Below are positions 42,531 through 56,578 of a stretch of 64,000 bases of DNA, in pieces. The notes under the pieces were generated by a model. The model searched no databases. It saw only the letters and a list, made by a program, of their open reading frames with translations, and was not told the origin of the DNA. Position numbers and translations under genes: made by a program. How positions within the stretch are numbered: the first letter of the stretch is position 1; each line of letters begins with the position of its first letter. The DNA is from Escherichia phage vB_EcoP_PAS59: sequence record OQ921332.1; one strand, written 5' to 3'.

Positions 42531-43544
42531 TTACCATGTCCCTATTCTGATTCTCAAAACACCATTACCGTCATAGAAATCTATACGGCTTCCATTCATC
42601 CACAGCCTGTTACCACCAGAGCTTGGACCTAGTTGGAAATCTCCACCAACTGTAAGTCTCCAGTTAGTTCCGCTCATTGCACCAGCAGTGATTTTATTAG
42701 CTGCCAAGTTTTGAATCTGAGCATTACTAACAGACACATTATCAATTTGTGCCCATTGGATTCTAGCATTTGCTATCATTGCTGTCGTTATATTGACATT
42801 CTTGATGTCCGCAAATTCCATCCTAGCTCGACCGTTCTCAAAAACAAAAGGAGTGTTACCTGTTGTTCCGTTACCAACTATAAACTTGTTAGCAGTAACT
42901 TGAAATTGGCTATTAGTTCCGTTGTTGGTCAGCTTAACACCAGCATACTGACCGTTGACAGAAGAGTTGACACCCCAAGTAGCCTCATATGAAGAAAGTT
43001 TCATATATTGAGATAAAGAGTTCTGAACTGTAGTAACTTTACCATCTACCGTTGCTATCTGTTGACCTTGAGCGGTAAGCTCTGTTTGAACTAAAGCAAT
43101 CTCTTGACCTTGGTCATTTACAATACCTTCTACCGTTTGAATCTTAAGATTAGCCCCTTCAATAGAGGTCTTGAAGCCTGCTACCGTCCCATCTAGTTTG
43201 GTAGGAGGAACAGTTGAGTTATCCCAAATATCTTCAGTGGACAGATTACCCATTTGTGTCTGGATATCAGCAATAGCTGTTTCAATCTCTGTAGTAATTC
43301 TATTCTCAAGTTCGTCAAATTGAAGATTCATTGCATTAAGAGCTTTGATTCGAACATCAATCTCATCATGTATCTCATCAATTGCTTGGAACATTTGGTT
43401 TGTAGCGGTGCTGACTTTCTGGAGTTCATCATAAACCGCAACGTTGTATTTATCCGTATCCTCTACATTGTTGAGAAAGCCAACGTTGTAGGGAAGCGTG
43501 GTGTTGTTTCTTCCAGTATTCTTACGAAAACCTCCAGCACCCAT
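42531..43544 (-). CDS. structural protein (tail fiber/needle-like, coiled coil)
   Basis: ORF in structural block. Confidence 0.35.
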   Translation of the reverse strand: MGAGGFRKNTGRNNTTLPYNVGFLNNVEDTDKYNVAVYDELQKVSTATNQMFQAIDEIHDEIDVRIKALNAMNLQFDELENRITTEIETAIADIQTQMGNLSTEDIWDNSTVPPTKLDGTVAGFKTSIEGANLKIQTVEGIVNDQGQEIALVQTELTAQGQQIATVDGKVTTVQNSLSQYMKLSSYEATWGVNSSVNGQYAGVKLTNNGTNSQFQVTANKFIVGNGTTGNTPFVFENGRARMEFADIKNVNITTAMIANARIQWAQIDNVSVSNAQIQNLAANKITAGAMSGTNWRLTVGGDFQLGPSSGGNRLWMNGSRIDFYDGNGVLRIRIGTW

Positions 43545-43591: not shown

Positions 43592-46591
43592 TTACCTTCG
43601 ACCGCCAACAGCAAACTCTATAGTGAGTCCATTCATAGAGGCATTACTATTAACATCATTATCTATAACATTATAGAATAGGTATGGATGGTTCAATCTG
43701 ACCGATACGTGACGATCTACACCAACCCTAAACTCTTTAGTTGAGTGATTATGTCCATACTCATTAGAGAATTGACTTCCACCTGCTTCGAACACATAAG
43801 TACCTGTTCCAGTTACTTGTGGTCTAAACTTGTTGATGTGTTTTTGATTCCATTCATTAGTGACATTATCAAAGTCAATACCAGTCCTCTCTAGCCTCAT
43901 TTCTAAAGGCCTTTCTATAACTGTATCATTTGATCTGTCATAAAAATAATCTAAAGCACCAACATCTACTTGATAGAACCCTCTCAAGAAAGAACCTACT
44001 ATTGTAACCCTCTGACGGAAGTTTGTTGCATCCTTTCTCCAGACAAGTTTGTCAATAGATGGATCATCCCAAGTGACTTCTTGAAAGTCTGCCCAAATAG
44101 GACCACGCTCAAGAACAGGAGGATCAACCAAACCAATACAGTAAGAGTATGGAATAGTACGGAAAGACCAAGTATCAAATTCGTAGTTCCAAACAGCAGC
44201 TTTGGTACAAGCGAAACTCTCTTTTGGCTCTCCCGGTCCTACATATAGAATCCAAACTTCTTTCTTATCTTGATGTAGATGGACTTTGGTAGCTATAGGA
44301 TTTACTAGGCATATTTCATTGATTAGCATATTCTTAACACGGTTAGAAGCAATAGACTTCTTAGATGCCCCATTATGAAGAATAACATCGTTCTGAGTAA
44401 CTACAAAATGACCACCCTCTACTTCCACAACACATTCGGGAGCAAGAATTCCTGAATCGTTAAACAACTTCTTAAACATCAGAGGTTGATATGTGTTATT
44501 AGTGGGTGACCCAATGTATGTCTCAAATTCAGTGTAAACAAACAAATAGTCCTTCAGAGGTAACACTTCTATAAGACTACCGTTCGAATCTGCAAGATCA
44601 ATATACCCTGCATACCCATTCTCAAGAGCTTCAGTCTGTCCGACAATATTAGCAGCAAGATCAGAGCTGACAGCCCTATCATATGCATAATCATCCCACA
44701 GCTCTGGAGCCTTGTTCTCTTCTGCAAAATTAGACCAACGAAGACGCAACGGGTAATGTGTTGTAACGCCAGAAGCATTAGATTCTCTCATATTCAGAGC
44801 AAACAATCTGTTGTTAAATGCACGAATGCGCTCACACTTCCAGTTATACTTCTTAACAGAAGGGTTCCCTGATGCATCTACTACTGTCTGTTCACCCCAT
44901 CCCGGCAAGTCAACAAAGTATTCAGAATCAAACTCTTTAACTTGAGGAGTTTCATAATGGGTGGTTGCAACTGCACAGTTAGAGATGATAGTATGATACC
45001 ACGGGTAATCTTCAAAAGCATCGTAGTCTTTTTGAACCATCTGACTTACAGTGCAGGTAACTTTCACTTCACCCTTACGGAGAGCTGTGAGCTTGAGAGT
45101 AGGACTACTGGTGTTGGTAGTAGACACATAACCACTCTTATCTACGGTCCATTTATAGGAATAGTTACCAGTCGGAGAAGCTGTTGCTGTCAATACAATC
45201 TCTTCACCAACATCCAGAGAGGCATCTATAATATCCAAAGTCACGCCACTTAAAGGAGGATCATTAGCTAGAAGAGCAGCTCTGCCAAAACCTTCAAGGT
45301 CCATTACGTTAGAGTAGTCATAGAAATTGTTACCTTCTGCCATACCTGTTGTATCAATTCCAGTGTTCTCTGATGCAAAATATACCACATCTTCTTTCTC
45401 AATCACAGGCTCTTCTACCGGAGCTTCAGGAGTAATAGAGTAAGACAAAGAACGAGCCATTCTAGAAGCCAAACCAACTTGAACTTCACAAGTAGCGGTA
45501 CGATTACCTTCTACAGTTGTTGCTGTAATTTGAGTATACCCCGCTACTAAACCAGTAATAGTTGCTTCTGTACTAGAACCACTAACAGTAGCAATGTTGG
45601 GGTTAGAACTTGTCCAAGTGATTGCTTTGTTAGGGGCATTGGCTGGATTAACCGTAGCTGTTAGTATGTACTGAGTCCCTCTATTCATTGTTACATTCTC
45701 TTGACTTAGAGAGATGCTATCAATCTGAGGAATTGCAGAAACTACACAAGATGCAGTTTTTGTCCCATTATCAGCTGTAATGGTTACGTTACCTTCTCCT
45801 GAAGCCCTCAATACTGCGGTTAAAGAGTTTGAGTTAGGTGTGACTGACACAATACTTGGGTTAGAGCTTGTCCAAGTGACGCTTGGTTTTCCTGTAATAG
45901 CAGTAAGTGTTGAAGTTCCTCCTTTTCTCACTGTCAATGTATCCTGACTTAAGAAGATTCCAGAATCTCCATCAATAATGTTAACAGCAATCTGAGTGGA
46001 CACAGATTCATCTGCTGTTCGAACTGTAACTACTAGATTTCCTTCAACAGCTTTAGAAGTAAGTGTTGCTTTTTTGGAATCTGTAGGGTCAACAACAATG
46101 CTACCATATGCTGAATTACTTACTGACCAAACTAGATTAGTATTCTGTGCATCTTCCGGGGTTATACTGACTTCTAAAACCTTTGTCTTGTTGAAAGTCA
46201 TTGAGACAGAAGACTCTTTAGGGGTAATAGAAGATACAACCGGATAGATCTTGAGTGTCGCTGTTGCTTTCTTAGTTGCCGTAGCAACCTTGCGGCTGAT
46301 ATCAGTAAGCCCTTCATCAGTTAATTTGTACAACTTCTTGTCTGTACCAACTACAAGGAAACTATTGCCAGCACTGTAATAATCAAAAGGCATAGAGATA
46401 AAAGAAAGAGGGGTTAGGTCTTTATCTTCATCAACGTAAGAAAGAGGGGCATTGCCCCCCGTCTTAAATACCCTCTGCTCTACAAAGCGAGCATTAATAG
46501 CGTTAGTGAAAGCATTTGGTGCTAAGTCAGTAGGTGCTTGGTCAGCGATAACCCCAACTGCCCCTAATGATTTTATTGGATATAAAGCCAT
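43592..46591 (-). CDS. large structural protein with tandem Ig-like (Big_2-type) domains
   Basis: At least three repeats such as 'VSITPEDAQNTNLVWSVSNSAYGSIVVDPT', 'SVTWTSSNPSIVSVTPNSN', 'AITWTSSNPNIATVSGSS'. Confidence 0.5.
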   Translation of the reverse strand: MALYPIKSLGAVGVIADQAPTDLAPNAFTNAINARFVEQRVFKTGGNAPLSYVDEDKDLTPLSFISMPFDYYSAGNSFLVVGTDKKLYKLTDEGLTDISRKVATATKKATATLKIYPVVSSITPKESSVSMTFNKTKVLEVSITPEDAQNTNLVWSVSNSAYGSIVVDPTDSKKATLTSKAVEGNLVVTVRTADESVSTQIAVNIIDGDSGIFLSQDTLTVRKGGTSTLTAITGKPSVTWTSSNPSIVSVTPNSNSLTAVLRASGEGNVTITADNGTKTASCVVSAIPQIDSISLSQENVTMNRGTQYILTATVNPANAPNKAITWTSSNPNIATVSGSSTEATITGLVAGYTQITATTVEGNRTATCEVQVGLASRMARSLSYSITPEAPVEEPVIEKEDVVYFASENTGIDTTGMAEGNNFYDYSNVMDLEGFGRAALLANDPPLSGVTLDIIDASLDVGEEIVLTATASPTGNYSYKWTVDKSGYVSTTNTSSPTLKLTALRKGEVKVTCTVSQMVQKDYDAFEDYPWYHTIISNCAVATTHYETPQVKEFDSEYFVDLPGWGEQTVVDASGNPSVKKYNWKCERIRAFNNRLFALNMRESNASGVTTHYPLRLRWSNFAEENKAPELWDDYAYDRAVSSDLAANIVGQTEALENGYAGYIDLADSNGSLIEVLPLKDYLFVYTEFETYIGSPTNNTYQPLMFKKLFNDSGILAPECVVEVEGGHFVVTQNDVILHNGASKKSIASNRVKNMLINEICLVNPIATKVHLHQDKKEVWILYVGPGEPKESFACTKAAVWNYEFDTWSFRTIPYSYCIGLVDPPVLERGPIWADFQEVTWDDPSIDKLVWRKDATNFRQRVTIVGSFLRGFYQVDVGALDYFYDRSNDTVIERPLEMRLERTGIDFDNVTNEWNQKHINKFRPQVTGTGTYVFEAGGSQFSNEYGHNHSTKEFRVGVDRHVSVRLNHPYLFYNVIDNDVNSNASMNGLTIEFAVGGRR

Positions 46592-46602
46592 TATAGCCCT
46601 CC

Positions 46603-47406
46603 TTAGCTAATACGTCTCCAAATGTGTGCTGCTCGGAACGGCGGCAATGTGTTAATAGGTTGGCGAGATGTATCATCACGACCAAAACTAACAGAACCTG
46701 TGATTGTGTGTGAGTGAGTATTAGTGTCAGTCACCTGAGTGTAACCACTACCCGGACTATACCAGTTAGGGCTGCTGTTATGACCACTTGCATCACCTCG
46801 TCCCATTCTGATATTGTGTGAGTGGGAATAAGAACTAACTTGGAAGCTAGAGCCATTGATTGTGGTTAGAGGTATGTTATCAGCACGAATCGTATTGAAT
46901 ACGCGACCACCTGTACCACCTGCTTGAAATTCTACACGTTGGGCGTTAGGAACAGACCCATCAGGGTTAACAACACCAGTACCCATAATAACACCTGTTA
47001 CTTTAGCCCAAGAGCCAAAACCAAGAGATGCAGAATCACCGGGGTTAATATCTTCTTCAGTGATGTAATAAGAACCAATACGGTACAACTTATTCTGCAT
47101 CCAGTTCAACATGAAAGCTTCCATCTGACCTTTTGTTACAGCATCCCTATCCCCGGTTCCCGGAGTAAGGTTCTTAATCATGAGATTACCAACATCCATA
47201 GCATCACCAGTAAAAGTGATCTTCTCTGATAGAGCTTTAAAAGATTCAGAAGAAAGGTTTACTGGTTCTGTAATATTTGGGAATGTGTTAATCAAAACCT
47301 GCTTAATAAGGCGGAGTTGAGCCGCCCCTTCATAAATGTAATCTCTGTCTCTAGGGTACAGAGGGTTTAAATCGGTAGTCACTACCGCAGTTGTTTCGAT
47401 AGCCAA
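46603..47406 (-). CDS. tail fiber-like protein
   Basis: 'TGDRDAVTKGQMEAF' resembles the D-A-V-x-x-Q-L motif in both large fibers. Confidence 0.4.
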   Translation of the reverse strand: MAIETTAVVTTDLNPLYPRDRDYIYEGAAQLRLIKQVLINTFPNITEPVNLSSESFKALSEKITFTGDAMDVGNLMIKNLTPGTGDRDAVTKGQMEAFMLNWMQNKLYRIGSYYITEEDINPGDSASLGFGSWAKVTGVIMGTGVVNPDGSVPNAQRVEFQAGGTGGRVFNTIRADNIPLTTINGSSFQVSSYSHSHNIRMGRGDASGHNSSPNWYSPGSGYTQVTDTNTHSHTITGSVSFGRDDTSRQPINTLPPFRAAHIWRRIS

Positions 47407-47943: not shown

Positions 47944-48162
47944 TTAAGGAAGAATTTTTCTCAGAGCTGAAGATTGAGCATCTGGGCAAATAACAACCAA
48001 ATTATTTTGAATGGTCCTTTGTTTACATTGAGAACTAAGCTTCTCTACGGGAGCTTCTATAACAGAATGAGAGCTTACCGCATTTACAGGCACTGCCGTA
48101 GAAATCACAAAACCAGTCCCTAAGCAAGCAAGACCATAAGTTACTTGTTTCATCATTTTCAT
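47944..48162 (-). CDS. small hydrophobic-N-terminus protein (possible holin or signal-anchored protein)
   Basis: 'VTYGLACLGTGFVISTAVPVNA'; abuts lysozyme gene. Confidence 0.3.
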   Translation of the reverse strand: MKMMKQVTYGLACLGTGFVISTAVPVNAVSSHSVIEAPVEKLSSQCKQRTIQNNLVVICPDAQSSALRKILP

Positions 48163-48229
48163 TTTCTTCTCCTTTTCGTTTTCCTTTTGGATATAATAGT
48201 TTCATTACTTATTCATCAGTTTCACTCCT

Positions 48230-48249
48230 AAAAGCCCCCGAAGGGGCTG
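48230..48249 (-). terminator. hairpin AGCCCC-UUCG-GGGGCU (weak U-tract)
   Basis: After stop of 48254-50377. Confidence 0.3.
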
Positions 48250-48253
48250 TTAA

Positions 48254-50377
48254 TCATTTAGCAGCTTTCAGCGTAGCAACCTCCTTCTTCAACTCATCAA
48301 CCTGCTTCATCAACTCTAAAATAGCTTCATGATGAAGTGCCGCAGCAACACCATAAGTGTCTACAGACTTTGTATCTTTAACAATCGAACCATCTTGAAG
48401 CTCTGTATCCCCGGTAACTTTGACAGCATCAGGGAAGATTTTTTCCACATCTTGTGCAATAAACCCATAACCCACTTTATCACCGGATGTTTTAAGTTTC
48501 CAAGAAACACCTTTTATCTCTTTCATCTTGTCCAAAGGTTTTTCTATTCTAGAAATATCATCTTTTATTCTTTCATCAGAATCAGTGCTCCAACCACCCG
48601 GGCAAACAGCTCTTCCATCCTTGAGAAATTGAAAATGTTTTAGATTAGTTCCGGCTGTAGATGTTGATATGGTAACGTCACCATCACGCTCTGTGTAAAG
48701 TCTTCCATATATAGCAGTGTTAGCGCTGTTTTTAAATTCAATGAAAGATTGATTATTGTTGTTACCTACAAAAGTTGCTTTACCTTCACGAGAAATTAAC
48801 TGACCTTTAGCATCAACGTTCCCACTGCGAACAATTAAGTTAGTTGGAACGTTTAAGTTACCATCACTGCCAAAATCAAAGGCTTCATTAGCACCCGAAG
48901 TTTTATTGAAAACAGTAACACGGGCAGCATAGGTAGATCCAACAGTCCCTACCATCCTGAACGAAGCATACCCTTCAACATCAGTGCCAGTTTTATATTC
49001 AGATATAATAGAGCCGCCGTTAATAGAAGTTCCAGTGTTTGGAAGAACACTATCACTGTTAATGACGGACCAAGAGGTATTAGCTGCTACGAAACCACCT
49101 TTAGCTCGAATAACCCAAACACCTACGAAAGAGTTAGGGCGGATTTCTGATACGTTTTGTCGTCCGTAAACGGCGCTGGAGTTGGATGCTTTGAAGTTAA
49201 CAGCAAGACCCCTGTTGGAACCAGTTCCTGCTCCAGTACTTGCCTGCAAGAGTTGAAGGTCGAGACCTGTGTCGGTCACATAAAGAGAACCACTCGCAGA
49301 GTTTGCAACAAATAGCCTAGCAAAGTTACTACTCGACCCAGTAGATACAGCACCAGTAATCTCCGGGGCCGCAGACTCGTGTATCTTCTGGGTAAAATCC
49401 CCACTACCCCGACCGAACAATCCTTTTAGAGAACCGCTTTGAACACCATTCTTATCTGGAACACGGAAAGTAGTAGAACCGTCCCCTAAAGAGTATTGAG
49501 AGCGTTTAAGAGGGTCTGCCAGCCAATCAGCATCAGAGATAGGTGTTATCATTTGCGCATATGCCCAAAGCTCTGGATAATCTGTACGAGAAAGAAGTTG
49601 ACCATCTGACGGGATATCATTAGATGGGATATAAGCCCTACTGTCAATTAAACGGAAATCACCAATGTTGAAATTGGAGATACCATTCATGGTAGGGCCA
49701 CCAGAACCTCCACCACTGTTACGAAGCTGCCTTAGTGTGACTGCATCATAGTCACCTACAGCATCTGCTACAGTAACCGGTTGCTGAAAGGTAACTTTCT
49801 CGGTAAATTGTTTGATATCAGAGTTGATACCAGTTCGAGTTACACCAATGGTGCGTCCTTTGGAATCTTTTACATAGGAACCGATTGAAGCGAAAGGTAA
49901 ATCCTCAATCTCAGGACGATAACGTTTAGAGTAAATAGGATACTTGGTTTCTACACCACCATCATTCAAATCTACAACTTGAAGACGACCAGCAGTATGA
50001 ACTTCTACTCCCTGAACAGAAGAAGCATAGCTCCCAATCTTAATTGCGTTCTCTGGTGTAACTTTAATCATATCTACAGATTCTACACCATTAGCCCCTT
50101 CTGACCGGAAAGGTACATCATTAGCTACAAATGGATCAGCTTTGAATAAAGCACCTTCCATAACAGGGTCAATAGCATCCGTAACATATTGCTTGGTTGC
50201 ACCTTCTGCCTTGGTCATATAAGTTGCGCTCGCATCAGACTTCTGGAGGTACTTGTCAGTCAGATCAATAGCACCAGCAACACCATCTACAGTAGATACG
50301 CCCACCACAGCAGCATCACGAGTCACAACCACATGTGGCATCATAATGCCAGATTTGGGCATTAATTCTCTAGACAT
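48254..50377 (-). CDS. tail fiber with collar-like domain and C-terminal intramolecular chaperone (S74-like) domain
   Basis: 'DAVGDYDAVTLRQL', 'DGQLLSRTDYPELWAYAQ...GSTTFRVPDKNGVQ', C-terminal 'DERIKDDISRIEKP...GFIAQDVEKIFPDAV...'. Confidence 0.6.
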   Translation of the reverse strand: MSRELMPKSGIMMPHVVVTRDAAVVGVSTVDGVAGAIDLTDKYLQKSDASATYMTKAEGATKQYVTDAIDPVMEGALFKADPFVANDVPFRSEGANGVESVDMIKVTPENAIKIGSYASSVQGVEVHTAGRLQVVDLNDGGVETKYPIYSKRYRPEIEDLPFASIGSYVKDSKGRTIGVTRTGINSDIKQFTEKVTFQQPVTVADAVGDYDAVTLRQLRNSGGGSGGPTMNGISNFNIGDFRLIDSRAYIPSNDIPSDGQLLSRTDYPELWAYAQMITPISDADWLADPLKRSQYSLGDGSTTFRVPDKNGVQSGSLKGLFGRGSGDFTQKIHESAAPEITGAVSTGSSSNFARLFVANSASGSLYVTDTGLDLQLLQASTGAGTGSNRGLAVNFKASNSSAVYGRQNVSEIRPNSFVGVWVIRAKGGFVAANTSWSVINSDSVLPNTGTSINGGSIISEYKTGTDVEGYASFRMVGTVGSTYAARVTVFNKTSGANEAFDFGSDGNLNVPTNLIVRSGNVDAKGQLISREGKATFVGNNNNQSFIEFKNSANTAIYGRLYTERDGDVTISTSTAGTNLKHFQFLKDGRAVCPGGWSTDSDERIKDDISRIEKPLDKMKEIKGVSWKLKTSGDKVGYGFIAQDVEKIFPDAVKVTGDTELQDGSIVKDTKSVDTYGVAAALHHEAILELMKQVDELKKEVATLKAAK

Positions 50378-50390
50378 ATTTAATTCTCCT

Positions 50391-50410
50391 TAAAGCTCCC
50401 CGAAGGGAGC
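50391..50410 (-). terminator. hairpin GCUCCC-UUCG-GGGAGC between the two fiber genes
   Basis: Followed by UUUAAGGAG (SD of the next gene), so more likely a stabilising hairpin than a full terminator. Confidence 0.3.
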
Positions 50411-50419
50411 ATTGTTAGT

Positions 50420-53400
50420 TTATTTAGCAGCCAGCTTAGCTTCCAGCTCTTCTACTTTCTCAGACAAGCACTTAATTGCTGCAAGAGCATCTAATAAAAG
50501 CGGGTTAGTGTCGAGAGTCATAACTCCACTTTTTTCCGCACTGTGAACATACTGAGGGTCAACCTGTTCTGCCTGTTGTGCAATCACCCCTCGACGTGGA
50601 GATTTCTTCTCATCACTCTTATATGTAAAATTCTTAAACTCAAGAGCTTTAATGTTACTTAGAGCGACACTTAAATCTAAATCGTCTCCAATGTCCTTAA
50701 CACTCGCGTCAGAGGTTCCAGCATTCTGAAGAGTTGTCCACGGAAGGTTGGTTTTGAGTTCTTTTGGATTGTTGTTTATGGTGTTAGTTCTAACATAAGC
50801 CGAACCATTCAAGCTTATCCAAAACTGGCAGATTCTGTTTACGGCATAAGAAGTTTGGAAACCTCCCCCATTTGCAGCTGCCCACGGCGAATTACCATCC
50901 GAGTCTGTTATGAACTGGTTATAGTTAGAATCAGGTAACACTGTACCACCCTGAACACCAACACCATAATCATCCTTCACCAAAACACGACCCCTAGGAG
51001 TCTCTATATTCCCAGCTTCAGTGAAATCAAAAGTTGTACCTTTCGAAGAAGTTTTATTATAAACCCCAATTCTTGCAGAGTATGAACCACCAACAATGCC
51101 TTGCATTTTGAACTCAGCTGATCCTTCTGGCTCTGTGCCAACCCTATAATCGGATATCAAGTTGCCACCTGTAACGGTTGTACCGTCCGACGGTCTTATG
51201 TCATCGCTATTAATAACAGACCAAGAAGTGTTAGCTGCAATGAAAGCACCCTTAGCACGAATCACCCATACACCGACGAAAGATCTAGGCCTAACTTCGT
51301 CTGCCTGTCCATAAATAGGGTTATAAGAATTAGCATTAAAATACACATAAGTGTATCGGTTTGGTGTGCTGGTAGCCGCTGTCGTAACAAATCCGTTTGT
51401 GAGATCAGTCTCGCGAACACTAAAGGCATCTGTCCCGCTGGATATTACCGCCCTCCCGTTTGCATCAACAGCACCAATACGCCCTGATATGTTAGGCGCG
51501 GCACTTTCGTAAACGTTACCCGCTGTCAATAATCCACCCTGATCGCCCCGACCAAATAGCCCCGGAATTGACCCGCTTTGAACCCCGTTGCGGTCAGGAA
51601 CTCGGAAGGTCGTTGTTCCGTTCCCTGAAGAGTATTTACCCCTCTGTTGGGGGTCTGCCAACCAAGCTGAATCCGTTATGGGGGTGAGCATTTGAGCATA
51701 TGCCCATAACTCAGGGTAATCAGCACGGTTAAGAAGCTGTCCGTCTGATGTTACATCATTTGGGTGAATAAAAGCACGACTGTCTACTAGTCGGAAGTCT
51801 CCAATATTGAAGTTGGAGATACCATTCATTGTAGCCCCACCACCGCCACCACCTTGGTTCTTCAACTGACGATAAGTAACAGCGTCGTAATCACCTACAG
51901 CATCAGGAACAGTAACCGGTTGCTGGAAAGTAGCTTTCTGTGTAAACGTTTTAAGATCAGAGTTTACACCGTCAGTAGTTACAGCAGCAGCACCTATAGC
52001 AGCAGGTGTTGGCTTATTGTTCTCTGCATAGAACAAATAGTCCCCAGAGGGTGTTGACAGATAAGGTACACTGGAACTAGCAATAACTGTACGGGCTAAG
52101 TGATCACCAAACACAGATGAATCTGAACCACTTCTAGAAACCATGTTGACTTGACTGCTGTCATCTTTAATACGTCTTAAAGAGATTCCATTGTTCAGAA
52201 CCAAGTTACCATCCATGATACCACCAGCTTTGGCAATAGCTCCAATTGTTGCAGGGGTGAGATTTACATTACCAGTATTGTCATTAGGGGATAACCCATT
52301 AACTGTTACAATATAAGGCTTCTGAGCTTGCACTTGGCCTTTGTATTCAGTATCTGTAGCCGAGTTAGGAGATCGAATTGTTTCACCACCAGTCCAGTCT
52401 GGGAGTCGGATGTTAACATAGTTAGTAGAATCTGCATCAGTAATACCGTCAGCTTGCTTACCCCAAGAGAAGTATTGCTTAGCACCTGCTTGCCATTCTG
52501 TTTCACTGACAACAGGGAGCTGACCACTGAGTAAAGATGGACCCAAATCTGCTGCCGATTCTTTAGAAACAAGACGACCATCAGCAGGAAGAATCCCGGG
52601 ATATGAAATATTCTTAGCTGGGTCATAAGGGAACATTACCATTTCACCAAGATACAGAGAAGGGTTTCCTGTAGGAATGGTGATATCAATGTTACCAGTG
52701 GAGTCTGGGATTCTAGAGTTAACAGTAACAACGCGAGGTTCTGTTTTCAAAGGCTCTAAGATTTTATCAGAAGCCACGGTGTAGAATGAATACTTAGTAT
52801 CTTCCCAAACTAGAATTGTCTCACCAGCCTTTCGGTTAATCGCATCAGCATCAGCATCAGCTTTAGTATTATAGGCTTTGATGAACCTGTCAACTTTCTT
52901 GTCGGTTTCTTCTTTACTGTAAGAAGCTACGTTTTCTACTTTATCCAACCCTACCGTGCTTTTATCAATAGTCAAAGAGACGTTACCGCTTTCGGCAGGT
53001 CCACCATTAACACTGATATCTCTAACAGAAGGGATTAGGTTTGCAATGTTTTCCAAAGTGGTTTTATGGACTGTGTTATCAGTTTGGTCTACGTAAAAAC
53101 CTAAATCCCCAGCGACAGGAACACCAGTATCAACAGTATTTAAATCTTTAACCGATCCATCTTTACCCGGAAGACCCTCAGGAATACCAAGGCTGATCTT
53201 ACCAGTGGTGGGGTCAAAATCTCCAGTAGCAGGTTGTCCCGGACTTAAAGTTGTCACTTCTACAGTCATTCCTAACAAGATATCCAGCTGTTTGTCAACT
53301 TCTACTAACTTTTGATTGATTAATGCGATAGCATTATTGGCATTAGCAACGGCAGCGTTAGATTGAGCAACAAGTTGCATCAAACGAGCATCTTGATCTC

Positions 53401-53641
53401 TGAAGTCTTGTTTAAGAGCTTCAATATCTTCACGTAACAGAACACCTTGCTGGTAGAGCTTCTCAACTTCTGCAATCAGATCATCAACCGTACCAAATTT
53501 AGCCTCTGCCAACAGTGACCAATATTTAGCATCAGCAGCATATTCAGCTGCTTGCTTATAGGCTCCAATAGAGCCTTCTGTTGCACCAAACTGACCAACG
53601 TTGTTAGGATTAGTTGGCTCTTGGTTGTTATAAACGATCAT
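50420..53641 (-). CDS. large tail fiber/spike, paralog of 48254-50377 with about 530-aa N-terminal extension
   Basis: Shares about 300 aa of collinear blocks with the neighbour; C-terminal S74-like domain 'GVIAQQAEQVDPQYV...'. Confidence 0.6.
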   Translation of the reverse strand: MIVYNNQEPTNPNNVGQFGATEGSIGAYKQAAEYAADAKYWSLLAEAKFGTVDDLIAEVEKLYQQGVLLREDIEALKQDFRDQDARLMQLVAQSNAAVANANNAIALINQKLVEVDKQLDILLGMTVEVTTLSPGQPATGDFDPTTGKISLGIPEGLPGKDGSVKDLNTVDTGVPVAGDLGFYVDQTDNTVHKTTLENIANLIPSVRDISVNGGPAESGNVSLTIDKSTVGLDKVENVASYSKEETDKKVDRFIKAYNTKADADADAINRKAGETILVWEDTKYSFYTVASDKILEPLKTEPRVVTVNSRIPDSTGNIDITIPTGNPSLYLGEMVMFPYDPAKNISYPGILPADGRLVSKESAADLGPSLLSGQLPVVSETEWQAGAKQYFSWGKQADGITDADSTNYVNIRLPDWTGGETIRSPNSATDTEYKGQVQAQKPYIVTVNGLSPNDNTGNVNLTPATIGAIAKAGGIMDGNLVLNNGISLRRIKDDSSQVNMVSRSGSDSSVFGDHLARTVIASSSVPYLSTPSGDYLFYAENNKPTPAAIGAAAVTTDGVNSDLKTFTQKATFQQPVTVPDAVGDYDAVTYRQLKNQGGGGGGATMNGISNFNIGDFRLVDSRAFIHPNDVTSDGQLLNRADYPELWAYAQMLTPITDSAWLADPQQRGKYSSGNGTTTFRVPDRNGVQSGSIPGLFGRGDQGGLLTAGNVYESAAPNISGRIGAVDANGRAVISSGTDAFSVRETDLTNGFVTTAATSTPNRYTYVYFNANSYNPIYGQADEVRPRSFVGVWVIRAKGAFIAANTSWSVINSDDIRPSDGTTVTGGNLISDYRVGTEPEGSAEFKMQGIVGGSYSARIGVYNKTSSKGTTFDFTEAGNIETPRGRVLVKDDYGVGVQGGTVLPDSNYNQFITDSDGNSPWAAANGGGFQTSYAVNRICQFWISLNGSAYVRTNTINNNPKELKTNLPWTTLQNAGTSDASVKDIGDDLDLSVALSNIKALEFKNFTYKSDEKKSPRRGVIAQQAEQVDPQYVHSAEKSGVMTLDTNPLLLDALAAIKCLSEKVEELEAKLAAK

Positions 53642-53650
53642 AATCTCTCC

Positions 53651-54421
53651 TTAACTGTAATGTTTAATTCCGTATAATTCACGAGAGCTGTGAAGACGGT
53701 CGATAGTTCGAGGGATAACTAGAGGAGAACCTGAATACTCAGCTTTCTTGCTCTGTTCAACTACTTCATCTAAGATGGCTTTCCCTAAAGCCGACCACTT
53801 CTGAACCCCATTATCATCTTGAACAAACAAGCTTGCATGACGTAATGTGAAATATAGAAGAAGCTCTGGAGCTATTGTTAAAATTGCACTTGTATCAGAA
53901 TCCTCATGAAACTCCGGAGGGTCTGCATAATAGCTAAGAATTACCGAATTCTCCGCTGGAATAAGAGGGCTTCCATCATCAGGGTAGACCGGAGTATCGG
54001 CGTTGATGGCTGGGTAGAACAGGAACCGACTTCCCAACCTAGTAAAACTCACCTCTCCCTGATTCCATTTAGTTGGGTTTACTGAGTTATTTCTTTTCAG
54101 CCAATCTAACTCTTCTGGAGAAGTTACTCGGAACATATGTCCATTACTTGCTCTCATCATCCACTGAGCTTCTAAGTAGTCTGGTGGAATAAAAGCCACA
54201 CCATCTTTAATATCTAAATATACTTCTTTTTCCAGAGGAGGAATTCGTAAGTTACGATAGATTTCTTTCTCTGCAAAGTTAATAAAGTTTGGAATCTGAT
54301 TAACAAATTCATCATCATCCCTGTCAGCCCAGAGGGACACAGCTTTCTTGAGCCATCCGTAGGTATTGATGGGATATTGAACGTCAGGCAACATAGGATA
54401 CCTCCTTCCAGTTTGTGCCAT
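53651..54421 (-). CDS. tail/adaptor structural protein (putative)
   Basis: Position between capsid and fibers. Confidence 0.3.
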   Translation of the reverse strand: MAQTGRRYPMLPDVQYPINTYGWLKKAVSLWADRDDDEFVNQIPNFINFAEKEIYRNLRIPPLEKEVYLDIKDGVAFIPPDYLEAQWMMRASNGHMFRVTSPEELDWLKRNNSVNPTKWNQGEVSFTRLGSRFLFYPAINADTPVYPDDGSPLIPAENSVILSYYADPPEFHEDSDTSAILTIAPELLLYFTLRHASLFVQDDNGVQKWSALGKAILDEVVEQSKKAEYSGSPLVIPRTIDRLHSSRELYGIKHYS

Positions 54422-54896
54422 TGATTATTAGGCTTATTGTGCTTGAAGAGACTCCAAACTTCCTAGCTAAAGCTCTAGCTCCGAACTGTCTGTCCCTCGG
54501 TTTATAGTTCTCTAAACAGAAAAGAACTTGTTCTTTAGTAAGTTTGGAATTAGGATTATCCTCAAGATTCCTTGGTGTTGAGAGTTTTGTTTCATAAGCA
54601 TGTACACAGTTTTCTTGTTGAGTACACCACTCTAGATTCTCAATCCTGTTGTCATCTTTTATTCCATTCTTATGGTTGACATACTCCTTCCCTTCTACTT
54701 TAGGAAGAAAGAGTTCAGCTATGACTCTATGTTCTAGGTAAGATTTCTTCTTGAAGGTTAACACACGATATCCCTTACTATTAATACATCCAGCACGTTG
54801 ACCTTTCTGTTTATTGAATATGTTACTCATAGACCAGAAAAGATGCCCTGTATTCGGGTTATATGTAAAAGCTCCTCTGAAATCTGGCATTGCCAT
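54384..54896 (-). CDS. HNH homing endonuclease with C-terminal HTH
   Basis: 'YVNHKNGIKDDNRIENLEWCTQQEN'; C-terminal 'ALARKFGVSSSTISLIINGTNWKEV'. Confidence 0.65.
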   Translation of the reverse strand: MAMPDFRGAFTYNPNTGHLFWSMSNIFNKQKGQRAGCINSKGYRVLTFKKKSYLEHRVIAELFLPKVEGKEYVNHKNGIKDDNRIENLEWCTQQENCVHAYETKLSTPRNLEDNPNSKLTKEQVLFCLENYKPRDRQFGARALARKFGVSSSTISLIINGTNWKEVSYVA

Positions 54897-54960: not shown

Positions 54961-54991
54961 AAAACGAAAAAACCCCGCCCGAAGGCAGGGT
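54961..54991 (-). terminator. strong intrinsic terminator CCCUGCC-UUCG-GGCGGGG plus UUUUUUCGUUUU
   Basis: Immediately after the capsid/Ig-extension stop. Confidence 0.65.
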
Positions 54992-54998
54992 CTAGTTT

Positions 54999-55511
54999 TT
55001 AAACAGGTGTTACACCAGTAAAAGTGCATGTTGCATTGATGGACGGGTCAGCTGTCAAACTTGCTTGAACAGTAACTTCGCCACTTGCAGCAGCATCTAA
55101 GGTTAACGCACCAGCGGCGCTTACTGTACCAGCTTCTGTAGGAGTTACAACAAACGTGTAATCCGCAGCAGCAGAATTAGTTACAGTAAACATGGTAGTG
55201 AAGTTAGTGGAAGAACCACCAGTTTTACCCGTAATTGGACCCTTAGCTACAATAGTAGGAGCAGGAGCAACAATTTCAGAAATGGTTGCTGTACCAGAAA
55301 CACCTTCTAAAGTTGCAGTAATGGATACATCAGTGGATTGAGACGCACTCGGAGCAGTATACAAACCCGACTGAGTGATAGAACCACCTCCTGTCACTGA
55401 CCAAGTAAAGCCAGTTGTTTCGGTAGAACCATCACTTTTCTCCGCGCTTGCAGTGAACTGCCGAGTAGCCCCTGTCTCTAGGCTTGCTAAAGACGCAGGG
55501 CTAACAGTCAC
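54999..55511 (-). CDS. Ig-like (Big_2-type) domain, probably made as a C-terminal capsid extension by -1 frameshifting
   Basis: In the -1 frame relative to the capsid ORF and open across its stop; 'SPASLASLETGATRQFTA...TWSVTGGGSITQSGLYTA'. Confidence 0.55.
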   Translation of the reverse strand: MTVSPASLASLETGATRQFTASAEKSDGSTETTGFTWSVTGGGSITQSGLYTAPSASQSTDVSITATLEGVSGTATISEIVAPAPTIVAKGPITGKTGGSSTNFTTMFTVTNSAAADYTFVVTPTEAGTVSAAGALTLDAAASGEVTVQASLTADPSINATCTFTGVTPV

Positions 55512-55522
55512 ACTGTCTACTG

Positions 55523-56578
55523 TTACGCCGCCACCTTTCCCGCAGCAGTGAACAGAACGCCGGAAGCATACGGGTTGCGGTGACGCAGACCAACTTCCAT
55601 TTCAATCATCCACTTCTCGTAAGAACCATCTTTAGCCAGTTCAGTACGTTTCGGAGCACGAAGAACCATCTGAGTCCAGTCAGAGCTGCGGAAGAAGTAA
55701 ACTGCATCAGCAGGCATCCAACGGTTAACGATGATTTTATAGCTCTGGCCCAGCGGGTCAGTGATGCTGTTAACTTCATAGATGAACTGTTTGGTGTTCT
55801 CAAAGATACGCTGACGAGAACCAACAGAGTTTTCCTGAAGCTTAGCAAAGATGCTAGCGTGAGCAGGGTTGATCATGATGATATCTGCTTCAGAACCAGC
55901 GGTATACAGTTGCAGAGTCATATCAAAGATATCAGCTTCATCAAAACCGATGTTCGTAGTCGGGTTAGAAGCATTCTGTGCAACTTTAACAGTTACTGCA
56001 CCAGTATCCGGGTCAGCAGGACCATTTTCTTTCTTAACAACACCGCCAGCAACACCATTGTGTGCACACAGGAACTGGAAAGCACCAGTCTTACGAGCAG
56101 CTGAAGTGTCGTTCTGGCCTACAACAGCAGGATCAGTTGCAGAGTTGGTCAGATACTGGTCTGCCAGAATATCGGTACGAGCCTGACCGGACAGCAAGAT
56201 TTTCTCGAGGTCACGTTTAATCTCTTTACCTTTCTTCTCCAGCTGATACATCAGTTCACGACCACGACCGTAGTTAGCGGTGGTGTTAGCAGTATCAGAA
56301 ACACGAACAACTTTACGCAGGATCTGAGTAACGTTGGACTTGATTACAGTCGGTTTCATTTCGCCGTCTTCAGCACGAGAGCCTTCGACGTGGGCGTTGT
56401 TAGCATCTACGCTCGCCAGAGCATCGGTCTGCCAGCTGAAAATAGTCTGATTGATAGACTCTTTACCAGTCATAGACACAAACGGAGTGTCTTGCGGAGA
56501 CAGGACAGAAATCCAGTTAGCAAAAGAAAGTTTTTTACCATTCTGGTCGTAAGATACAAATAAAGTTGGATTTGCCAT
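55523..56578 (-). CDS. major capsid protein
   Basis: 351 aa after scaffold, before strong terminator; frameshift extension. Confidence 0.6.
   Translation of the reverse strand: MANPTLFVSYDQNGKKLSFANWISVLSPQDTPFVSMTGKESINQTIFSWQTDALASVDANNAHVEGSRAEDGEMKPTVIKSNVTQILRKVVRVSDTANTTANYGRGRELMYQLEKKGKEIKRDLEKILLSGQARTDILADQYLTNSATDPAVVGQNDTSAARKTGAFQFLCAHNGVAGGVVKKENGPADPDTGAVTVKVAQNASNPTTNIGFDEADIFDMTLQLYTAGSEADIIMINPAHASIFAKLQENSVGSRQRIFENTKQFIYEVNSITDPLGQSYKIIVNRWMPADAVYFFRSSDWTQMVLRAPKRTELAKDGSYEKWMIEMEVGLRHRNPYASGVLFTAAGKVAA
55535..55541 (-). promoter_or_regulatory. candidate -1 slippery heptamer G_GGA_AAG, 4 codons before the capsid stop
   Basis: Plus-strand CTTTCCC at 55535-55541; possible hairpin AACAGU...ACUGUU about 10 nt downstream. 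Confidence 0.5.

Follow-up and report, generated by a model that had tools for sequence, protein, structure and literature searches.

In the tail of SU10, a Kuravirus, the long tail fibres attach to the adaptor and the short ones are carried by the nozzle (PMC9509320). The long fibre was described as a proximal segment of 300 angstroms and a distal one of 400 angstroms, with a single elbow, and residues 1-90 of gp12 were built bound to the adaptor (PMC9509320). In DT57C and DT571/2, a branched fibre with two specificities is supported by genetics (PMC4728585; PMC10713586), and it has been proposed that the LtfB-type N-terminal peptide docks on the trunk protein and that a trunk-type region receives the branch (PMC4728585). 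Bas87 Gp10 has been reported to contain a T4-Gp12-like first and a T5-like second binding domain followed by an intramolecular chaperone, and to be attached to the proximal fibre (10.1101/2024.09.12.612763). Moreover, EP335 gp13 binds O157/O26, and its cleavage after Ser621 has been shown by mass spectrometry (PMC8217332).

The window analysed here is the whole stretch of 64,000 nucleotides from Escherichia phage vB_EcoP_PAS59 (OQ921332.1), a Suseptimavirus whose host is O146:H21. Its best match in the phage collection is EK010 (96% identity over 81% of the query), and the order adaptor, trunk, branch, holin, lysin, short fibre, nozzle is common to PAS59, SU10 and EK010. All three fibre-like proteins match deposited PAS59 entries exactly, and the two large reading frames, on the minus strand, lie precisely where the preliminary description had placed them. 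Their 1073-aa and 707-aa products are called trunk and branch after the roles proposed below; the features are as follows.

53651-54421, minus strand: adaptor, SU10 gp11 type (Pfam SU10_adaptor, E 2.8e-29)
50420-53641, minus strand: trunk gene, 1073 aa, from the ORF list (WMX18946.1, annotated 'tailspike')
52238-53641, minus strand: trunk residues 1-468, N-terminal part conserved with SU10 gp12 (353/468 identical)
52223-53023, minus strand: trunk residues 207-473, proposed branch docking site (aligned to 8hqz_d 194-470)
50423-51982, minus strand: trunk residues 554-1073, putative receptor-binding module (BLASTP to the 707-aa protein; tblastn census)
51323-51578, minus strand: trunk cassette, ~256 bp, residues ~688-773, in the proximal binding domain (blastn boundaries against EK010)
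50423-50713, minus strand: trunk S74, residues 977-1073 (Ser977 at 50711-50713, Lys982 at 50696-50698)
50395-50410, minus strand: intergenic stem-loop, GCTCCCTTCGGGGAGC, with a UUCG loop; then TTTAAGGAG, then the ATG of the 707-aa gene
48254-50377, minus strand: branch gene, 707 aa, from the ORF list (WMX18945.1, annotated 'tailspike')
50240-50377, minus strand: branch residues 1-46, LtfB/gp15-type peptide, proposed trunk dock (33/46 identical to DT571/2 LtfB 1-46)
48257-49843, minus strand: branch residues 179-707, putative receptor-binding module, paralogous to trunk 554-1073
48257-49351, minus strand: exchanged part of the branch, ~1.1 kb, residue ~343 to the C-terminus (no megablast similarity to EK010; gap in the comparison at 48249-49351)
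48257-48580, minus strand: branch S74, residues 600-707 (Ser600 at 48578-48580, Lys605 at 48563-48565)
46603-47406, minus strand: short tail fibre, 267 aa, SU10 gp16 type (WMX18942.1)
43592-46591, minus strand: nozzle protein, SU10 gp17 position (three Big_2 domains in Pfam; full-length phrog_14417; synteny with SU10 and EK010)

The stem-loop between trunk and branch genes is identical in SU10, EP335, LAMP and EK010. The trunk is a full-length match to phrog_10305 and the branch to phrog_6921, and NCBIfam gave no matches for any of the three fibre-like proteins. The enzymatic tailspike that the GenBank annotation suggests was rejected, as Pfam and PHROGs revealed no glycosidase, lyase or beta-helix domain in these proteins; the plaques of PAS59, which are without halos according to the PAS59 paper, likewise count against it.

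The two products had been taken for paralogues, and pairwise BLASTP bears this out with a single collinear alignment between branch residues 179-701 and trunk residues 554-1071 (237/541 identical, 44%, E 4e-121). The blocks on which that view was founded, TMNGISNFNIGDFRL... and FVGVWVIRAKG.F.AANTSWSVINSD, are real, present in both proteins and not of low complexity, so the similarity is not confined to low-complexity regions; the shared part, originally put at about 300 aa of collinear blocks, extends over ~530 aa. What had been described as an N-terminal extension of the larger protein is not one: the N-terminal regions, 553 aa in the trunk and 178 aa in the branch, are unrelated, and the supposed extension is a conserved region that is predicted to bind the adaptor and has been proposed to receive the branch. 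A recent tandem duplication or gene conversion was rejected, the best inter-gene DNA repeat being 300 nt at 71%; because the two modules are only ~71% identical in DNA over these best 300 nt, the duplication is not recent.

The trunk joins the features of two described proteins. It is 75% identical to SU10 gp12 over residues 1-468, where the similarity ends, and in phmmer searches of the PDB its residues 1-473 match the SU10 'putative tail fiber' 7z47_D (E 3.6e-236) while residues 207-1071 match DT57C LtfA 8hqz_d (E 9.4e-149). The N-terminus is predicted to be an adaptor-binding, coiled-coil shaft of SU10 gp12 type; an N-terminus of the T5 Ltf type, which inserts into the LtfC collar, was not found in the trunk, whose LtfA homology starts only at residue ~199-207. 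The region 207-473, which is common to LtfA of DT57C/DT571-2 and to phiEco32 gp14, holds a first, degenerate collar-like motif (LPADGRLVSK...NIRLPDW), and residues 301-400 are 86-92% identical to gp12 of SU10 and EP335. The module beyond it opens with a DAVTYRQ linker; two binding domains follow, one proximal and one distal, with the conserved FVGVWVIRAKG block between them, and the S74 chaperone comes last, so that docking region, putative receptor-binding module and S74 domain follow each other in one polypeptide as in LtfA. SU10 gp12 (786 aa), on the other hand, ends in Phage_tail_C_2 (PF25670, residues 652-785) without an S74 domain, and PF25670 is absent from the 1073-aa protein in Pfam. 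Judged by these homologies, the 1073-aa protein corresponds to SU10 gp12, with a receptor-binding end of the DT57C LtfA type fused to it.

The branch begins with a conserved N-terminal peptide and shaft of the gp13/LtfB type. Over residues 1-218 it shares 82-89% identity with the gp13 counterparts of 84 Gordonclarkvirinae records, SU10 included, and residues 203-654 match DT57C LtfA 559-1016; by sequence, SU10 gp13 and DT57C LtfB are the proteins to which the 707-aa product corresponds. This bears on the dual-fibre set with dual receptor specificity that was envisaged at first. Two independent fibres, each attached separately to the tail and provided with its own receptor, would agree with the complete module and chaperone of both proteins and with the two 'tailspike' labels in GenBank, but such an arrangement is very unlikely, because fibres attach to the SU10 virion at only two kinds of site, gp12 at the adaptor and gp16 at the nozzle, and gp13 was placed in the long fibre together with gp12 (PMC9509320). 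Furthermore, the N-terminus of the 707-aa protein is the LtfB-type peptide, and DT57C LtfB has neither homology to T5 tail-binding regions nor a separate density on the tail (PMC10713586, PMC4728585). Two different receptor-binding ends are still likely; in place of two separate fibres, homology points to the trunk and the branch of a single one.

Both products were also thought to end in an endosialidase-type chaperone, and the Peptidase_S74 profile (PF13884) exceeds the Pfam gathering cut-off of 22 bits in each, with 38.5 bits (E 1.5e-9) at residues 977-1032 of the trunk and 56.5 bits at residues 600-653 of the branch. The Ser-Lys dyad, whose absence would have spoken against this assignment, is present as S977-DASV-K982 and S600-DERI-K605; the Ser and Lys columns (S-x4-K) are invariant across an alignment of 40 homologues, and the motif lines up with the beginning of GA-1 3GUD (SDERHK), with S16 6F45 and with EP335 gp13. 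The C-terminus as modelled matches solved chaperone domains, in a monomer model with a mean pLDDT of 62.6 that is poor outside the chaperone. By analogy, we infer that the chaperones of trunk and branch cleave themselves; the predicted products are 104.2 + 10.5 kDa for the trunk, with a 96-aa fragment freed, and 63.6 + 11.9 kDa for the branch, with a 107-aa fragment freed.

The collar-like domain ascribed to both proteins shrinks to a motif-level resemblance, since the Pfam Collar profile (PF07484) remains below its cut-off of 24 bits, with 20.8 and 20.5 bits, and the match spans only profile positions 38-53 of 57 (~16 positions). T4 gp12-like similarity has been reported for orthologues by HHpred and InterPro in the literature; here, hhalign of the 40-sequence alignment against T4 gp12 yielded 14 columns (E 0.092), and the putative gp12-like region has a model pLDDT of 40-70, T4 gp12 not being among the structure matches. 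Nor does the third fibre-like gene share its D-A-V-T-K-G-Q motif with the other two, as had been suggested: the exact motif is confined to the 267-aa protein, DAVT(L/Y)RQ stands in the two fibre proteins, and DAVT..Q is a generic fibre motif. The 267-aa protein was accordingly rejected as a third member of the paralogous set. It is 84% identical to SU10 gp16 (224/267), keeps the Y23-I24-Y25 nozzle-dock motif and two HxH motifs (HSH at 195 and 231), and scores 41.8 bits with Pfam Gp10_C (cut-off 27), while BLASTP against T4 gp12 found nothing. As far as these features tell, it is a true short tail fibre, conserved and of SU10 gp16 type, predicted to dock on the nozzle.

Taken together, homology and analogy make it quite probable that the two genes encode the trunk and branch subunits of a single forked long tail fibre. 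In such a fibre, the trunk trimer would rest with its N-terminus on the tail adaptor, offer shaft residues ~207-470 as the dock for the branch and end in its own receptor-binding module (residues 554-976), and the branch trimer would plug into the trunk via its N-terminal peptide (1-46) and shaft and carry a second, diverged copy of the module (residues 179-599). The S74 chaperones would aid the folding of the modules and, after trimer assembly, cut themselves at S977/S600 with K982/K605 as base, leaving mature proteins of ~104 and 64 kDa. Both tips would most likely bind surface glycans (O-antigen) in a first, reversible contact, whereupon the 267-aa short fibre and the nozzle protein would finish attachment, as in SU10. 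It is the branched geometry, and glycan binding by both tips, that we infer here.

The geometry can be approached through what differs between PAS59 and SU10. The N-termini of their branches are conserved (~85% identical) and the C-terminal halves of their trunks are unrelated, which places the partner surface within trunk residues 1-468; the C-terminal module of the trunk would therefore form a separate arm. In addition, the trunk docking region and the branch N-terminal peptide co-occur in the T5-like DT57C and DT571/2. A linear fibre, in which the 707-aa trimer sits end-to-end on the tip of the 1073-aa protein and the trunk module serves as a joint or knob and not as a receptor binder, draws on the two segments and one elbow of the SU10 fibre (PMC9509320), a description that could fit an end-to-end arrangement too and in this respect counts against branching, and on GFP-gp12 of EP335, a trunk with a different C-terminus, which bound no tested strain (PMC8217332). 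The linear arrangement is nevertheless unlikely, because alike branch N-termini combined with unrelated trunk C-termini make docking on the trunk C-terminal tip improbable. Besides, DT57C LtfA, homologous to the trunk over 199-1070, sets O-antigen specificity by experiment (PMC4728585), and the precise replacement of the trunk cassette relative to EK010 is the pattern expected under host-range selection. Against the forked fibre it also counts that cryo-EM of SU10 resolved only trunk residues 1-90 (PMC9509320), that the evidence for a branched phiEco32 fibre in PMC4728585 is a personal communication, that the monomer model lent no confirmation to the folds of the two binding domains, and that PAS59 plated on 1/16 strains tested (O146:H21), dual specificity not being observed (PAS59 paper).

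The cassettes themselves emerge from the comparison with EK010, in which identity falls abruptly from 95-98% to undetectable inside each module. The trunk cassette has no megablast similarity to EK010 between flanks that are 95-96% identical, and the closest segment in the phage collection reaches only 60% identity. In the branch, the 340 residues upstream of the exchanged part are nearly identical to EK010, and the best collection match of the exchanged part is 61% identical (KBNP1711). Because these swaps are abrupt and lie inside both modules, both modules probably bind receptors.

According to a tblastn census, most Gordonclarkvirinae have the module in the branch protein only and not in the trunk. 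A trunk-borne module occurs in five other relatives, EK010, E20-1, SDYTW1-F1-2-2_3, LAMP and pEC-N1203-2Af.1, and a query across the junction (trunk 400-640) was covered fully only in these five and in the T5-like DT57C, DT571/2, DT530 and TrudiGerster. That the trunk module is a recent acquisition, redundant or decaying, with the 707-aa protein alone mattering for host recognition, would accord with this scarcity and with the PAS59 paper, which discusses WMX18945.1 alone as receptor-binding protein. Such a fate is most improbable: the intact reading frame still encodes the Ser/Lys pair and every conserved block, the two modules have diverged to only ~71% DNA identity, and the same architecture is kept in the five relatives, which are distinct phages from at least two genera with 55-98% identity across the junction.

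There is about an even chance that in PAS59 and these five relatives the trunk knob was replaced by an LtfA-type module, giving a fork with two tips and a combinatorial host range. If so, all six fibres would fork into two unlike tips, and with perhaps two binding sites on each tip a single fibre would present up to four glycan-binding surfaces, the short tail fibre being extra. As the two tips differ from those of EK010 by independent exchanges, host range would be set by two swappable cassettes, and the published one-RBP analysis of PAS59 would have left half of the recognition apparatus out of account. Host-range proteins matter for phage therapy and for the detection of Shiga-toxin-producing E. 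coli, and in engineering or predicting host range within this clade both cassettes (51323-51578 and 48257-49351) need weighing. The analysis indicates that both PAS59 'tailspikes' are subunits of a fibre and not enzymes, and that a second binding module, exchanged independently, sits on the trunk. The locus adds a podovirus example to the LtfA/LtfB branched design of T5-like phages and illustrates module transfer between unrelated tail types; it opens no new question, and as the trunk-plus-branch arrangement is already described in related phages, the finding in PAS59 is real and largely ordinary.

Among the known systems, LtfA/LtfB of DT57C and DT571/2 (PMC4728585; PMC10713586; PDB 8HQZ) likewise consists of two adjacent genes, with a UUCG-loop hairpin between the fibre genes in both systems, in DT571/2 between ltfA and ltfB. 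LtfA, as the PAS59 trunk, combines a docking region with its own receptor-binding end and S74 chaperone, and LtfB, as the PAS59 branch, combines a conserved N-terminal peptide with an S74 chaperone and a receptor-binding end paralogous to that of its partner. The alignment of the two branches begins at residue 1, with 33/46 identical, and goes on at 44% over 547 aa. However, the first ~200 residues of the PAS59 trunk are of the SU10 gp12 type, which belongs to a podovirus adaptor, and those of LtfA are of the T5 type, which belongs to the LtfC collar; the 19-aa tandem repeats of LtfA are missing from the trunk, and overall identity is only ~37% (342/915 aligned columns, trunk 199-1070 against DT571/2 LtfA). 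The virions differ as well, PAS59 being a prolate podovirus with six fibres and the DT57C type a siphovirus with three.

The chaperones resemble those of the endosialidase type in K1F endoNF (3GW6), GA-1 gp12 (3GUD), T5 pb1 (4UW8) and MyRF ICA (7DC3), but the PAS59 passengers, unlike those of endosialidase-type proteins, are fibre-type binding domains and not a sialidase or a beta-helix tailspike. EP335 gp13 (Nieuwekanaalvirus; PMC8217332) is an orthologous branch, 61% identical overall and ~70% in the chaperone region, with the same S-DERIK cleavage motif, whereas identity is down to 26-34% in the variable parts of the binding domains, and the C-terminus of the EP335 trunk, gp12 (926 aa), is of another kind. 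SU10, with gp12 proximal and gp13 distal (PMC9509320; PDB 7Z47), shares the tail proteins and gene order of PAS59, and its branch gp13 has a PAS59-like module and S74 domain, with residues 1-218 ~85% identical; where SU10 gp12 has Phage_tail_C_2, however, the PAS59 trunk has an LtfA-type module of 520 aa, a paralogue of the one in its own branch. 'T-shaped' fibres with dual binding domains have been described in Gordonclarkvirinae, Wifcevirus and some Tequintavirus (10.1101/2024.09.12.612763). Bas87 Gp10, found at the same locus and ~44% identical to the paralogous module, corresponds to the 707-aa protein, and whereas the proximal fibre Gp9 of Bas87 was described without such a module, the proximal protein of PAS59 carries a second one.

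The DNA is that of PAS59, a published Suseptimavirus of the subfamily Gordonclarkvirinae, prolate-headed podoviruses (PMC11522302), with E. coli A11-1675 (O146:H21) as isolation host and the only one to support plating (1/16 strains tested) (PMC11522302). Three of its products have exact, full-length matches among PAS59 proteins, all encoded on one 79,199-bp contig:

50420-53641, minus strand: 1073-aa protein, the trunk (SU10 gp12 / DT57C LtfA type); WMX18946.1, named tailspike in GenBank
48254-50377, minus strand: 707-aa protein, the branch (SU10 gp13 / DT57C LtfB type); WMX18945.1, named tailspike in GenBank
46603-47406, minus strand: 267-aa protein; WMX18942.1, named baseplate in GenBank

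The tail gene order of the window is that of EK010, the nearest record in the phage DNA collection (96% identity, 81% of an 8-kb query), and of SU10, for which cryo-EM assigned gp11 as adaptor, gp12 and gp13 as proximal and distal proteins of the long tail fibre, gp16 as short tail fibre, gp17 as nozzle, and gp18 as needle (PMC9509320).

The two adjacent ORFs were found where the preliminary description had put them, and the paralogy it proposed is borne out by a single collinear BLASTP alignment (branch 179-701 against trunk 554-1071, 44% identity, E 4e-121), in which the shared blocks are complex and well conserved rather than confined to low-complexity sequence. Because the DNA of the two copies of this receptor-binding module (trunk 554-1073, branch 179-707) reaches only ~71% identity in its best 300 nt, they are old, or separately acquired. 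The predicted S74 chaperone was likewise recovered, with Peptidase_S74 (Pfam) above threshold at the extreme C-terminus of both proteins and a Ser-Lys dyad in each (S600-DERI-K605 in the branch, S977-DASV-K982 in the trunk), Ser and Lys being conserved without exception in an alignment of 40 sequences, both paralogues among them. The branch motif aligns with S621-DERIK of EP335 gp13, which is cleaved after Ser621 according to mass spectrometry (PMC8217332), and with the start of the GA-1 chaperone as seen in its crystal structure; predicted mature masses are 63.6 kDa for branch residues 1-600 and 104.2 kDa for trunk residues 1-977, against 75.5 and 114.6 kDa for the uncleaved proteins. An AlphaFold model of branch residues 195-707, poor overall (pLDDT 62.6), is of low confidence in both binding-domain regions and confident in the last 100 residues.

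The collar-like domain claimed for both proteins fared less well, as Collar stayed below the cut-off of 24 bits in each (20.8 and 20.5 bits; ~16/57 profile positions), and profile comparison of the module with T4 gp12 gave no significant match. The distal fibre of Gordonclarkvirinae has been called ‘T-shaped’, with a first binding domain resembling T4 Gp12, a second that is T5-like, and the chaperone (BASEL preprint, 10.1101/2024.09.12.612763), and ‘collar-like’ is taken here as a motif-level resemblance, documented by others for orthologues. A second, degenerate copy of the motif (LPADGRLVSK...TEWQAG...NIRLPDW) lies in the conserved region of the trunk (residues ~341-417, window 52390-52620), and another, in residues 344-400 of DT57C LtfA, aligns with the collar-like block of the branch (E 3e-6). 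The copy in the trunk could be what is left of a binding domain now put to use in branch docking.

The 267-aa protein, previously described as the product of a third fibre-like gene, is 84% identical to SU10 gp16 and keeps both HxH motifs as well as Tyr23-Ile24-Tyr25, the clamp of the nozzle dock loop; it is the conserved short tail fibre and no third paralogue. Further features of the neighbourhood are the following:

42531-43544, minus strand: 337-aa ORF downstream of the nozzle gene, full-length match to phrog_16534 (‘tail fiber protein’)
47944-48253, minus strand: 310-nt gap after the 707-aa gene, with a holin-like ORF of ~72 aa (MKMMKQVTYGLACLGTGFVIS...)
50395-50410, minus strand: GC stem with UUCG loop (GCTCCCTTCGGGGAGC), in the 50378-50419 spacer between the fibre genes
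54384-54896, minus strand: HNH_3 homing-endonuclease ORF, 170 aa, E 5e-14
54999-55511, minus strand: Ig-like ORF, 170 aa, entered by -1 frame from the capsid gene
55523-56578, minus strand: major capsid gene (SU10_MCP)
55535-55541, minus strand: slippery heptamer GGGAAAG, just before the capsid stop codon

The 337-aa ORF sits where SU10 has its tail needle, gp18, and here again the ‘tail fiber’ label looks misleading. The holin-like ORF is in synteny with the EK010 and SU10 holins, and the lysis genes therefore lie between the long-fibre and short-fibre genes. The UUCG hairpin, followed by TTTAAGGAG and then the ATG of the 707-aa gene, is identical in SU10, EP335, LAMP, and EK010 despite the differing ends of the upstream genes, and in DT571/2 a comparable hairpin (GGGGCTTCGGCCCC) separates ltfA from ltfB. 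The element may act in RNA stability or processing, or mark a module boundary for recombination. Further upstream, the HNH_3 ORF has a strong terminator-like hairpin (54970-54993) on one side and the adaptor gene on the other, and its 3' end shares 38 nt with the longest adaptor ORF. It looks like a mobile insertion because EK010 and SU10 have no gene there. The heptamer and the -1 Ig-like ORF match the programmed frameshift by which YF01 and its relatives produce an extended capsid isoform (PMC9965538).

Across the boundary between conserved trunk and module (query, trunk residues 400-640), full cover was obtained in few records: EK010, E20-1, SDYTW1-F1-2-2_3, LAMP, and pEC-N1203-2Af.1 among Gordonclarkvirinae, and DT57C, DT571/2, DT530, and TrudiGerster among T5-like phages. 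Since the other Gordonclarkvirinae among the records listed have a single module, on the branch protein, PAS59 belongs to a minority with the module on both arms. Between EK010 and PAS59, whose flanking DNA is 95-98% identical, megablast similarity is lost abruptly at two places:

51323-51578: trunk cassette, residues ~688-773, within the first binding domain
48249-49351: branch cassette, residue ~343 to the C-terminus

In per-residue maps the two phages are nearly identical right up to the breakpoints; for the replaced segments the phage collection offers matches of 60-61% identity at best. EK010 is reported to infect O157, and PAS59 infects O146 (PMC11522302). Selection on host range is expected to leave such a pattern, with exchange restricted to the variable insert in each module; that the trunk copy shows it too speaks against its being no more than a joint or a relic, and argues that both trunk and branch arms are likely in use. 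LAMP, from horse faeces, was isolated on E. coli 4s, whose O22-like O-antigen is bound by DT57C LtfA, and its trunk protein is 79% identical to that of PAS59. There are hints, then, that LtfA-type modules have been exchanged between podoviruses and T5-like siphoviruses sharing a host.

The conserved part of the trunk is 75% identical to SU10 gp12 over residues 1-468, where similarity ends, and residues 301-400 are 86-92% identical to gp12 of SU10 and EP335; SU10 gp12 carries a C-terminal Phage_tail_C_2 domain and lacks the S74 domain of the PAS59 trunk, whose full-length architecture has an existing family in phrog_10305 (PHROGs). Over branch residues 1-218, identity to the gp13 counterpart is 82-89% across 84 Gordonclarkvirinae records, SU10 among them. 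Because the branch N-terminus is thus ~85% conserved between PAS59 and SU10 while the C-terminal halves of their trunks are unrelated, we infer that the branch would be held by a surface within trunk residues 1-468, so that the 520 residues at the trunk's C-terminus would be available to form a second arm of the fibre.

The pair is best read as the two parts of a branched fibre; the observation of two paralogous fibre proteins stands, and its earlier interpretation was right in part only. The PAS59 paper treated only one of the two as receptor binder, and the locus should help to predict host range in this clade, though a specialist would not find it surprising. In T5-like phages, LtfA residues 223-471 are similar to phiEco32 gp14 and the first 45 residues of LtfB to phiEco32 gp15, and genetics backs a branched fibre with LtfB on LtfA and two O-antigen specificities (Golomidova et al., PMC4728585); cryo-EM of DT57C showed no site at which LtfB attaches to the tail on its own (PMC10713586). 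LtfA of DT57C and DT571/2 aligns with the PAS59 trunk from residue ~199 to 1070, and DT571/2 LtfB matches 33/46 positions of branch residues 1-46 and aligns at 44% over the remainder. The locus is most likely a form of the LtfA/LtfB branched fibre found in Gordonclarkvirinae.
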